NCBI GenBank assembly: GCA_976551045.1
Contig: CDPCPM010000231.1
Span: 3,100,001-3,164,000, forward strand
Origin: Glaucostegus cemiculus
Taxonomy: Eukaryota
Length of the DNA stretch: 64,000 nucleotides
Direction of reading: 5' to 3'
Below, one piece after another: positions 19,169 through 52,462 of the stretch (positions are counted from its first letter, which is position 1; each line of letters starts with the position of its first letter). The notes under the pieces were generated by a model, which did no database searches, had not been told where the DNA came from, and worked only from the letters and a program-made list of their open reading frames with translations. A program made the position numbers and the translations under genes.

Positions 19169-19872
19169 TATTATTTCATAACATTACAAATGAGGCATTT
19201 TGTTTGGTTTTTCCGAGTTCTCACTTTCTCCAGTTTATAGCATCGTATATCATTGCAAGATCAATTCCACAATTATTCAAAACTATGAAGTCCTCATCCA
19301 TACCAGTTAACTCGATTTTTGTTAAATGGTGATTGTTACATGAATTTTTCTTATTAATATTGCATAACACTACAGTAATGATGGCATTGTTTATTAACAT
19401 TTTGTATTTTGCTATGACTTCCTTAACAGACACAATCTTGTTTTGTTCCAATAGCTTAAATGATAAATCTGTTTAGATAACACATATAAATCATTAATCG
19501 GAAATGTTAACTGTTCCTCTCTTTGTAAATGATGCTTTGTCTGCTGAGTATTTCCAACATTTTGTTTTCAGTTAATTTTGTTGATCTTCTTTACCATTCT
19601 AGGAATTGCAATGCTACCTTTGGAAGTGAACACAGCCTTACTTAGCACTTAACTACGATATTTATCTACTTCTATCTACGAGCAATGCTTGTGCACTGAC
19701 AGCACTGTCAATGACTTCGTTGGTGAGAAAAATGTAACAATACCCCTTTGTTTTTAAAATAAAGGGCAAGAGCTTGAATTTACAAAACAGTTTTTGTGAT
19801 TTCAGGATGTCTCAACACACTTCACAGTCCCTGTCCTGTGTTGGCCATGTCCAAGAATTCATGGAAGAATGT

Positions 19873-41290: not shown

Positions 41291-43675
41291 TACAGAAAAC
41301 TTGTTAAGAACTAACAGCTCTTACTAGTCACAGCTGCAAAATGGAAAGGGCATCCAAGTCAAAACCTGCTAATTAGGTTACTTGGGAAGAACAACAATTT
41401 GCATGTATGAAATACCTTTAACAGAATAAAAGCAACCCAAGATGCTTCACAAGAACAGTAAGAGACAACTTTTCAAACAAGCTATTTTTGACAAATGGGC
41501 CTTGAAGGTTTCCATTGTGGAGGATAACTTTTGCCTGAATTTGCTTGTTTTTCATGGAAATAGGTAAAGCCAAAATATTTATTGAAATTTAGTATTTTCC
41601 ACACTATTTGAAAAAATACCATGATTCAGTCAATGCACTCCTTCTAGAACAAACATATATACAATATAAATTCTTTGTAACATTTTCTGCTACCAGTGTA
41701 ATCTTGATTTTATAAAACTCTTCTAAAGCAGTTTTTATGATTTACAAAATTAACAGCGCATATTGACCTTTTAGAGGTCTCTTGCTGAGTTGAACGGTTC
41801 AGTGAAGTAAGTCTGAGCAATTTATTTCCATAAACAGTGATTCTACTTCTCTGAAAGAGCAGCACTGAAATTCCTAAGGGAAATGAGCAGTGACAGTCAG
41901 AAATCCTTGTTTATCTCCTCAAAATCAGTGGTTTGTAAATTTATAGCACAGATGCTCAGTAACTTCCTTGAGTGATGCTTCTATTTTTTTCATAATCATG
42001 CCTGAATTTCAAATCTAGGTTAATGTAGTAAATTGTTCAATCACCCTTAACTAGTAAATGCCGGGATAATGATCTCTGTTAGGTTTACAGTACTCATAAT
42101 GAGCTTAATTATGTTTGATTTGACCCACAACACCTTGCCTCCACCATGCCTGTTCTCTCTCGGTATCAATGCATGGACTCAATGGCACCAGATCTCCTGA
42201 TCCTGGAGGCAAAGTTTTGCAACTAGGTTTCAGCTAGCACACTGCTGAGGGCCCATCCCCACAGCTCCCTGACTGCCCTCGACATTAAGCAGTGCTCGGG
42301 GCACAGCCTTGTCTACTGTCAAATTTAAAATGCTTCTGTAGAAGTTTTTAAATGTTCTTGATCAAGACGCGTATTAACATAAGCATTTTAAAACAAATAT
42401 TTTTTTAAATCAATAAAATCTTTGAAAAAACATTACAAGACTGATAAATAACTAAAGAATAAAATAAAAGGAAAGTGAATACAAACTGAATTTACACTTC
42501 TTTTCACCTCAATCTCAAGATTGGGCACCCCCGTTCAATTTGGAATTCCATGCAATTGGGCTCTTCTGTTGGGCGCTACATGGAGTAGAGCATTGAGTGA
42601 AGTGAGAGATGTCCTGGTGTCTGTCACTTACTCATTCCAGACATAGAGCAAGGCTGCATGACCCTTGGATATACTTAGTGAGTGGCTGAATGCTGGTGCT
42701 TTCCTTTCTGATTATAGGCCATAACCAACTTCATCTAACCCAATGGTTCATACATATAGAAGTCCTTACCTGGTATGATATTGCTATAATATGAAAACCT
42801 GCAGCCAATTAATTATAATATTTTTAAGTAGTTGAACTTTCATTGGAAAACTTTATCTAAACTATCTATAGTGATAAATTCCATAACCTATTTGTACAGA
42901 TTGTTATGCTTCATTAGAAATACAATGCACATCTAATAAAGCATCTATAATTATCAAAGCTGAAGGATATACTACATATAAAAAATATTGAGTTGTTAGT
43001 CAAACAACCTATACATCAAGACATAACTTGATTGATTTTCATATTTATAAACCTAGATTTTATGACCTCTCTGCACCAAATGCTGGTAATTGAGGGTTAG
43101 CACCATGATCACGACATCAGTTTAACAGTGAGAAATAATATATTGTATCATCATATCAATGACTGTTGCAATCCATTGTACCACTAAACAAGCAAGGTTG
43201 ACACCTAACTTGAAATATGAAATTTATAGGCTTTGAGAATGGTTGCCTTAAAGTTTCTTGGATCATGGAATTTATTACAAATTTTCTTTAGATAATTAAA
43301 GCAGCAAAATGAATGCATATTAATCAAACCTTGCCATGATTTCTCAAAAGGACATAAAAAACAGGAGCAGGAGTAGGTCACATCATCTCTTGAGCCTGCT
43401 CTGCCTTTCAATGAAATCATAAATCCATCTCTTGTGGGCCTCAGCACCATTTTCTTGCCTGTTGACATCAACCTCCAACTCCATTGGGGTCCAGTAAACT
43501 TGCCCGTCTCCTTGAATATAGTCAGCTTCCATGGCTCTCTAGGGTTAGAGAATTCTAAAGATTCATAGTCCTTACAAAAGAAATTCTTTCTCATCTCCAT
43601 TTAAATGGTCCTGCCTTATTCTGAAACTATGTCTAGCTCTCAATGTCTACTCAGTCATTCCCTCAAAGAATTATG

Positions 43676-43912
43676 GAGGCACAAGAGACTGCAGATGCTA
43701 GAATCTGGAGAGACCCACAAAAACTAGAGGAACTCAAGCAGTTCAGGCAGGCACATGGAGGGAAATGGACAGTCGATGTTTTGGGTTGAGACCCTTCAAA
43801 TAGACTGAGACGAGTCTAGATGAAGGGTCTCCACCCAAAACATTGACTGTCCATTTTTCCCCATAGACGCTGCCTGACCTGCTGAGTTCCTTAAGCATTT
43901 TGTGTGTTGCCC
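43676..43912. mobile_element. Palindromic (fold-back) Penelope-derived insertion: two inverted terminal repeats, 12-bp TSD
   Basis: 43712-43806 is the imperfect reverse complement of 43813-43910. Flanked by caaagaattatg (43664-43675) and caaaaaatcatg (43913-43924). Confidence 0.85.
43813..43849 (+). ncRNA. Decayed minimal type I hammerhead ribozyme motif (mirror copy on - strand, 43770-43807)
   Basis: agtc-TAGATGA-a-gggt-ctcc-accc-AAAA-c-att-gact versus the core CUGANGA-stemII-GAAA-c-GUC. Stems I and II are intact, and most core changes are CpG-type transitions. Confidence 0.6.
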
Positions 43913-44074
43913 CAAAAAATCATGTTTCAATAAGATCATCTGTCGTTCTCCTAAACACCAATGTGTATAGACCTAACCTGCTCAACCTCTTGTTGTAAGA
44001 TAGTCTTTTTACCCCTTTTCTGAACTACCTTAAAAACAAGCATATAACTCCTCAGCATCAAGACCCCATTTCAG

Positions 44075-44185
44075 TCTGAATCATTCACTCTATTTCTCTT
44101 TCCACAGATGCTGCTCAACCTGCTGAATGCTCCCAGCATTTTCTATTTTTATTTCAGGTTTCCAGCATCTGCAGGTTTTTTTATG
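44075..44185 (+). mobile_element. Penelope-like terminal fragment, older family
   Basis: ccacagatgctgctcaacctgctgaatgctcccagcattttctatttttatttcaggtttccagcatctgcagg. Confidence 0.8.
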
Positions 44186-48204: not shown

Positions 48205-48420
48205 AAGGTTGAAATAAAAACAAAAAATTGCAGGAAACACTTAGCAGGTCAGAAAGCATCTGTGAAAACAGAAAACAGAGTTAATGTTTCATATCAAGGA
48301 CTCTTTATTCAAACTGGGAGAGGCAAAAAGTTAACTCTTTTTTCCTTTCCACTGTTGCTGCCTGACCTGCATTTTCCAGCATTTTCTGTTTTTATTTCAG
48401 ATCTCCATTTGCAATTTTTG
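48205..48420. mobile_element. Second fold-back pair of Penelope-like terminal repeats (older family)
   Basis: gaaataaaaacaaaaaattgcaggaaa...gcaggtcagaaagcatctgtg...gagttaa pairs with ttaactc...gctgcctgacctgc..tttccagcattttctgtttttatttc. Confidence 0.75.
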
Positions 48421-50557: not shown

Positions 50558-50613
50558 AAGACACAAGAGATTGTGCAGATGCTGGAATCTGGAGCAACAC
50601 ACACAAAAGTGTT
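50558..50613 (-). mobile_element. 56-bp Penelope-like terminal insertion with perfect 12-bp TSD
   Basis: aagacacaagagattgtgcagatgctggaatctggagcaacacacacaaaagtgtt, flanked by ACTTTCAAAATT at 50546-50557 and 50614-50625. Confidence 0.9.
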
Positions 50614-51886: not shown

Positions 51887-52462
51887 AGGACATACAAGAG
51901 ACCGCAGATGCTGGAATCTGCAGCAACTCAAAAAGCTGGAGGAACTCAGCAGGTCAGGCAGCATCAGCTGAGGGAAATGGTCAGTCGATGATTCAGATTG
52001 AGACCCTTCATCTGGACTGAAAGATAGAGGGGAGATAGCCAGTTAAAAAAAAAGATGGAGGGAAGGGGTGAAGCAAGAGCTGGTAGGTGATAGGTGGATG
52101 CAGAATTGTATAATTCATTGTAGGTGGTTATAGGTGGGGGGGCAGTTGAGGGAGTGTTGCTGGGAGGTGATAGGTAGAAGTGACAAGGGGCTGAAGATGA
52201 TGGAATCTGACAGGAGAGGAAGGTGGAGTATGGAATAAAGGGAGGGAGCCGGGGAGAGCAGATGGGAGTAGTGGGGGAGAGGGACCAACGGAAAGAGTGT
52301 TTTTGGTGATGGGCAAATGGAAAGGGGAAAGAGACAGGGTGATGGGGGCTAGATAGATCAGGAGGAGAGTAGAGGGAGCAGTTTACCAAAAAGTTGGAAA
52401 ATTCAATGTTCATGCCAGCAGGCTCCAGACTACCCAGGAGGAATATAAGGTGCCGATGCTCT
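51887..52462 (-). mobile_element. 5'-truncated Penelope-like element (GIY-YIG C-terminus and pLTR), 9-bp TSD
   Basis: LEHRHLIFLLGSLEPAGMNIEFSNF (in ORF 51964..52530), pyrimidine-rich UTR, hammerhead-like motif at 51982-52019, and the same terminus as 43676 and 50558. TSD AATGTTATG at 51878-51886 and 52463-52471. Confidence 0.92.

Follow-up and report, generated by a model that had tools for sequence, protein, structure and literature searches.

A decayed head-to-head hairpin of a Neptune-type Penelope-like retrotransposon in Glaucostegus cemiculus and a family-wide hotspot of 5' ends at its hammerhead-like motif

The fold-back at positions 43664-43924 of the window, by which we mean the whole stretch of 64,000 nucleotides that was analysed, represents a Neptune-type Penelope-like retrotransposon (PLE) that inserted as a very short copy and has since decayed. 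The copy is inert debris and the locus itself is ordinary; the part worth following is a family-wide hotspot of 5' ends, together with the independence of the two arms. The best explanation overall is probably that cDNAs primed on the two target strands run to the likely 5' end of the element RNA and are joined head to head.

The hairpin and its host LINE

Throughout, +1 denotes the A of the CAGTCC motif in the 5' strand of hammerhead helix I, with cleavage predicted after +32, and the tail-bearing and tail-less copies of the repeat are called the long and short arm, respectively. The insert comprises 237 bases (43676-43912). Its long arm (43676-43806, reverse strand) is the terminal repeat (pLTR) end of the element from +1 (43806) to approximately +132 (43676; profile E 3.4e-32), and its short arm (43813-43912, forward strand) extends from +1 to approximately +100 (profile E 5.8e-29). 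The arms start on either side of a 6-nt junction spacer (43807-43812), of which the first one to four bases may continue the long arm and which was not found whole at another locus. Positions 43706-43806 pair with 43813-43914, and the fold of 43664-43924 has an energy of -142.3 kcal/mol (z -16.2), equalled by none of 200 shuffles. The insert is flanked by a 12-bp target site duplication (TSD), read directly, whose right copy (43913-43924, forward strand) matches the left copy (43664-43675, forward strand) at 10 of 12 positions.

The host is a decayed C-terminal fragment of a CR1-like LINE ORF2 (43590-44003, reverse strand), recognized from its paralogues and a peptide match and split by the insert; the label CR1 is assigned from the peptide motif. 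All six aligned LINE paralogues cross the insertion site without an insert and with one TSD-like copy. When the insert was removed by script, the match to a CR1-like ORF2 C-terminal peptide spanned the junction (E 2.5e-4). The sequence-only reading had described an approximately 237-bp fold-back of inverted Penelope-like terminal repeats in a CR1, a spacer of about 6 nt and a 12-bp TSD with two mismatches, and had named an empty site with a single TSD copy as a check; the fold and the six empty paralogues agree with this. Its description of two inverted copies holds for the head-to-head arms and fails for their equality, since a 30-nt piece of the PLE 'tail' (43676-43705, reverse strand) is unpaired and present on the long arm only, as is seen from the arm-arm alignment, which starts at 43706, and from the family-wide ends. 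The tailed arm thus has a length of 131 nt (profile positions 2-133) and the tail-less arm one of 100 nt (2-103).

The two arms are identical to each other at 78 of 95 positions and to the subfamily reference at 80/95 and 86/97. Selection on the hairpin was considered and rejected because both arms share only three changes, two of them at CpG. Elsewhere in the window, a partnerless long arm from +1 to +132 (51889-52018, reverse strand) ends at the hotspot described below, an older fold-back of a related subfamily (48226-48310, reverse strand, and 48323-48411, forward strand) has a different centre, and further remnants of the arm lie at 44076-44176, 50560-50607 and 19496-19565.

Transcription was assessed in three runs of ordinary paired RNA-seq from one study, with 18-24% of each run sampled. 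The bins flanking the element had a depth of 0 to 0.54 across the three runs, and 96-98% of aligned reads continue unlike the window and therefore originate from other copies; the proposal that this locus makes hairpin RNA is not sustained by its nearly readless flanks. At the level of the family, reads were found on both strands and include some that join opposite strands within the arm, which indicates transcription of some hairpin loci.

The element family and its hammerhead-like motifs

In the genome of 2.85 Gb, the arm profile has 95 matches in 590 kb of stretches chosen regardless of repeat content, and a 20-nt tail motif occurs exactly 8,739 times genome-wide. Longer copies show approximately 300 nt of pyrimidine-rich sequence upstream of the arm, preceded by the end of an ORF whose translations contain a CxxxxCxxC linker and a GIY-YIG-type domain. 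A 525-aa frame spanning RT to EN is preserved in one copy, and its best relatives are shark and ray proteins, with PF01541 in 4 of 79 matches; a direct Pfam scan gave a weak RVT_1 match (E 0.011) and no GIY-YIG match, and Pfam and PDB searches on the ORF returned little. In other longer copies the tail is directly continuous with the start of the ORF, so that the arm constitutes at once the 3' terminus of the pLTR and the 5' leader of the element. The head-to-head, one-tail layout recurs in long insertions, with arms of 160-2,550 nt.

These features correspond to the known layout of EN+ PLE insertions, which have an inverted 5'-truncated pLTR, a one-sided tail of 30-40 bp and a TSD (PMC8557442; PMC3846280). 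The family, although not the ORF-less stub itself, links its pLTR to a single ORF with RT and C-terminal GIY-YIG, and it contains inverted and partial-tandem pLTR layouts and pLTRs overlapping the ORF start. The sequence-only reading of a Penelope-like terminal repeat, with one pLTR copy inverted and partial, is therefore supported. Neptune clade PLEs are described as RT, a CX2-5CxxC linker and C-terminal GIY-YIG (PMC8557442), and such a linker between RT and EN, seen here in translations, points to the Neptune clade; Nematis has the linker too. Four walks for an intact full-length element reached only truncated, inverted or internally deleted copies.

Several observations were made beside the family assignment. 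Many ORF-start copies (L202-L225) are pLTR-ORF-pLTR units that internal deletion has reduced to 200-1,600 nt. Ray gene models annotated as kinase, chitinase-domain and mucin isoforms (P0002, P0006, P0042 and P0075) match the PLE ORF with 54-61% identity and are either exonised PLE pieces or annotation errors. A segmental duplication with a PLE fragment accounts for four loci (L186, L194, L195 and L196), which match one another at 97.5-99.7% identity across 3.2 kb, flanks included.

Each arm begins at the helix I 5' strand of a minimal type I hammerhead-like motif, recognized by alignment and folding and decayed in both arms. In the usual hammerhead residue numbering, the long-arm motif (43770-43807, reverse strand) has five core changes, C3U, U4A, G5U, A6U and G12A, and the short-arm motif (43813-43849, forward strand) has C3U, U4A and G12A together with an altered cleavage triplet. 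The intact core (CUGAnGA, GAAA, NUH) is absent from both; each arm can still form helices I and II, and the family profile has these two helices together with a palindromic helix III. At the locus, an Rfam search (E<=1) returned a chance match to a miRNA hairpin but no hammerhead, and a strict hammerhead-core regular expression gave no match. The earlier proposal of a hammerhead-like motif at the inversion point of each arm is thus right as to position at the 5' edge, with the qualification that both cores are broken. Pairs of minimal hammerheads on opposite strands, 100-700 bp apart, have been reported before (PMC4209133). Among 291 arms of the family the core variants include CTGAAGA (55), CAGATGA (48; U4A), CTGATGA (22) and CTGATGC (22; A9C), and non-canonical cores have spread as whole subfamilies.

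Scattered centres and a hotspot of 5' ends

A search with the whole element, the check suggested by the sequence-only reading, returned 28 distinct loci, nearly all with one centre; it is misleading in this form, since these matches share a centre because the query selects for it, and they were not used for the centre distribution. The 590 kb of unselected sequence contained 18 head-to-head pairs, with arm starts anywhere between profile positions 2 and 90; two pairs, separated by gaps of 138 and 190 nt, may be neighbours by chance. A subfamily sample was then defined by a 43-nt tail-side pattern alone, taking the first 70 of 101 copies, one of which is also among the whole-element matches. 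Fold-backs account for 44 of the 70, with six long arms beyond -100 left unscored for a partner. The long-arm 5' ends of these 44 range from -31 to +77 and the short-arm ends from -277 to +87; downstream, the long arm extends to +132 and the short arm mostly ends at +80..+107 (34/44). All 30 spacers of at least 4 nt differ from one another. TSDs of 7-17 bp were found in 23/44 fold-backs vs 0/44 shuffled controls, and this variable length is not the fixed short TSD of a DNA transposase.

These data bear on the proposal of a MITE-like or retrozyme-like palindrome that lacks coding sequence, moves as a whole and yields hairpin RNA, which now appears very improbable. It would account for the many near-identical layouts with different TSDs, for the fold-back joints in RNA reads from other loci and for the 73 loci genome-wide at which both arms start exactly at +1 within 30 nt. 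However, the spacers of the 50 loci listed among those 73 are different, with two pairs similar and many re-copied from the arm. One locus ends with the same six bases as 43807-43812, and yet it shares only 1/14 and 0/8 arm variants; none of the 11 loci with the most similar centres has this spacer, and no sibling copies of the hairpin at 43664-43924 were found. Furthermore, fixed length, ends and centre, as in a MITE, are replaced here by scattered centres (-277 to +87), unique spacers and unequal ends, a tandem array is absent, the cores are broken, and the flanks are almost readless in RNA. Neither the self-mobilised palindrome nor the centre and spacer shared across loci that the sequence-only reading had considered is supported, and a propagating palindrome was rejected on its scattered independent centres, unequal ends, unique spacers and variable TSD. 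Junction spacers in the family often repeat the last 5-12 arm bases, as could result from slip-back and renewed copying at the boundary of a template, or from a repair-templated insertion.

The scatter is far from uniform. Long arms ending at -4..+9 of the ribozyme 5' edge number 27/70 vs 2.5 expected from the end rate over +10..+90 (P 4e-19); the range was picked after viewing 30 copies, of which this set is independent. A mixed-subfamily replicate (70 of the 8,739 occurrences, including those 30) gave 23/70 vs 2.1 expected. The most frequent long-arm end is -1 (seven copies), and the pile-up falls off steeply on its upstream side, with 2/70 in -50..-5 and 8/70 further upstream; the hotspot is passed by 10/70 long arms and by 15/70 in the replicate. 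The first endpoint caller over-extended by chance, and stricter scoring and a simulation were used, in which uniform truncations produced no pile-up (19 called vs 18 true, of 300); a few degenerate arms are still miscalled. Partnerless copies end at the same hotspot.

Short arms also use the hotspot (18/44 vs 1.9 expected). Among the fold-backs, both arms end there in 6, only one arm in 8 and 12, and neither in 18 (Fisher P 1.0); the two arms reach the hotspot independently. The present copy belongs to the minority class, about one in seven fold-backs, in which both arms stop there. The idea of a non-random inversion point is accordingly upheld as a strong hotspot and not as a fixed point, both arms using it in only 6/44. 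A literature search, conducted mostly at the level of listings, gave no description of this hotspot or of PLE twin priming.

The further idea that the inversion point is tied to the ribozyme is correct in that the hotspot lies at the 5' edge of the motif, but ribozyme cutting fails to explain it because the cleavage site is approximately 30 nt downstream. Self-cleavage by the hammerhead, creating an RNA 5' end and thereby fixing the centre, is scarcely credible. Eight of the 70 long arms were indeed called at +32..+35, adjoining the cut site; however, three of these are miscalls, at least one of the remainder is a helix I microhomology join, and the main pile-up is elsewhere. The U4A change in the subfamily core (48/291 arms) also argues against cutting, as does the report that in vitro cleavage is dispensable and that no reads end at the site (PMC11167929).

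Candidate start site, priming mechanism and known systems

The 55 ORF-linked copies show an alternating TATA at -31..-24 and TTCAGT across +1, the C at -1 being invariant; one subfamily contributes most of the TATA count, and the box is a weaker match in the subfamily of the present copy. Judged by the general spacing and consensus of TATA/Inr promoters, the spot reads as a TATA/Inr-like or splice-acceptor-like motif and is a candidate promoter. A TATA and Inr-like pair has been noted in a rotifer pLTR (PMC3846280). In a hand tally of 100 arm ends, the next base beyond +1 is C in 60, G in 22, A in 12 and T in 6; the excess of G among the non-C bases (P 0.004) fits cap copying and could also stem from local re-copying of the arm. 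Among local loci, G is the next base in 18% of 34, the 'extended' class being contaminated by inverted arms.

In 3 of 390 arms, +1 is directly joined to downstream ORF-start sequence, which is present only behind the 5' pLTR copy. A spliced-donor origin of joins between ORF start and arm was rejected, as they are not at GT donors and most retain part of the upstream tract. At three loci (L242, L250:1426 and L290:582), arm +1 adjoins 30-70 nt of ORF start in the same orientation and the two form mini-tandems; another locus (L270) has approximately 110 nt of RT-region-like sequence between its arms.

The same stretch reads, over the 55 copies, as a polypyrimidine-AG acceptor (C 100%, A 89%, G 95%) with GTAA at the ORF stop. 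In several subfamilies (L136, L156, L068 and others), the region from ORF stop to hammerhead is mostly 230-350 nt and is bounded by GTAA and a polypyrimidine-CAG, resembling a retained intron. It can be asked, therefore, whether priming on two strands holds and the pile-up instead reflects an RT block at a protein-bound polypyrimidine-AG acceptor in a longer unspliced RNA. This is unlikely, although the tract with its GTAA partner favours it, the intron of D. virilis Penelope ends at the corresponding place, the 5' end of helix I (PMC4209133), and approximately a quarter to two fifths of the cDNAs that reach the spot pass it. Against such a block, none of 275 edge-starting arms carries ORF-end sequence directly upstream, as a spliced genomic copy would, no intron-skipping joint was found among the 15 joints listed of 59 in RNA reads, and the TATA spacing and the G excess suit a start site. 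Against the start-site reading, the start site of D. virilis Penelope lies further upstream, approximately 120 nt from helix I, and its promoter is TATA-less (PMC4209133; PMC2377424).

We favour the explanation by two cDNAs. The enzyme of the element would prime one cDNA per strand at a staggered target cut, and the two arms are very probably cDNAs primed on opposite target strands. Both cDNAs would run off the likely 5' end of the element RNA and would then be end-joined head to head with short templated or untemplated filler, afresh at each locus. Given the two-cDNA step, the odds are slightly better than even that the pile-up is run-off at a start site set by the TATA-like sequence at -31 and the Inr-like sequence at +1. 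Two cDNAs would explain the arm ends at approximately +132 and +90-100 as well as the TSD, and the hammerheads would lie back to back merely because the motif comes first in the RNA, with no need for cutting. The purified protein of a Poseidon PLE nicks and extends both target strands, starting at two tail-bounding internal sites, and ribozyme cleavage is unnecessary in vitro (PMC11167929). Against the start-site step, the commonest end is -1 rather than +1, and no RNA 5' end was seen, with no read-start pile-up listed in the three ordinary RNA-seq runs, which are weak for this purpose on a repeat.

The alternative that a single cDNA reaches the RNA end, snaps back and copies itself, with later centre-break deletions and repair scattering the centres and spacers, is decidedly improbable. 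Long perfect palindromes are unstable, which would suit such later deletions, and in 28 loci the arms of the same locus share 45 non-CpG variants vs 18.6 ± 4.0 for arms of different loci, a number compatible with a single template lineage and also with snap-back copying or gene conversion. Self-priming has also been proposed for inverted PLE junctions (PMC3846280). On the other hand, 15 of the 44 fold-backs have a tail-less arm that outreaches its tailed partner on the 5' side by 20 nt or more (a hand count from which a 16th, a miscall, was dropped), in one case by 246 nt, and in long copies the difference is several hundred nt; copying of a single cDNA alone cannot yield such arms, though later central deletions could mimic them. 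The partnerless copies ending at the same hotspot, the independence of the arm ends and the extension of both strands in vitro (PMC11167929) also stand against snap-back.

A PLE step resembling 'strong-stop' can be proposed tentatively on the two-cDNA explanation: on both target strands, RT may often start on the 5' pLTR copy at a distance of 95-132 nt from the cap, run off, and have to jump in order to proceed. If this were true, failed jumps joined head to head would have left tens of thousands of mini-hairpins, hairpin centres would map the start site to a few bases, and the tail, the inverted pLTR and the partial tandems would be one mechanism. The results bear on an open question, the origin of the inverted pLTR and the 5' junction in PLE insertions, for which self-priming was the suggestion of PMC3846280 and for which PMC11167929 leaves both steps unvalidated. 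The independent arm ends, the longer tail-less arms and the sharp template boundary at the hammerhead 5' edge provide in vivo constraints. A rough extrapolation from the 18 close head-to-head pairs in 590 kb gives a number of the order of 80,000 such hairpins genome-wide, a possible large passive source of double-stranded RNA.

The arrangement can be compared with several known systems. In L1 twin priming, primers from the two target strands produce an inversion inside the TSD, and the present layout is alike in both respects; the L1 cDNAs cover different parts of the RNA, whereas here they cover the same part and give a hairpin. Among PLEs, Poseidon of Anolis (PAc) similarly has two fixed 3' ends, beyond the hammerhead and at the start of the ORF, with approximately 33-35 nt between them, although it belongs to another clade and the starts here are at approximately +95 and +132; the main text of PMC11167929 does not treat the 5' junction or the inversion. 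Published EN+ PLE insertions share head-to-head pLTRs, a tail on one end, a TSD of 7-17 bp and variable arms, whereas here both arms are approximately 100-130 nt and ORF-less, and a sharp 5'-end hotspot is not part of the descriptions consulted (PMC8557442; PMC3846280). Unlike the Neptune clade as described in PMC8557442, the present family yielded no intact copy, and its clade assignment is by linker. The motifs resemble the minimal type I hammerheads of metazoan PLE pLTRs in their short helix I, longer helix II and palindromic helix III, but differ from the pairs 100-700 bp apart in being 6 nt apart with broken cores and a subfamily U4A (PMC4209133). Finally, non-LTR retrozymes are likewise non-coding, hammerhead-bearing and related to PLE pLTRs, but they are head-to-tail tandem repeats with working ribozymes (10.64898/2026.07.22.740005), whereas the present copy is a single head-to-head pair whose cores are broken.
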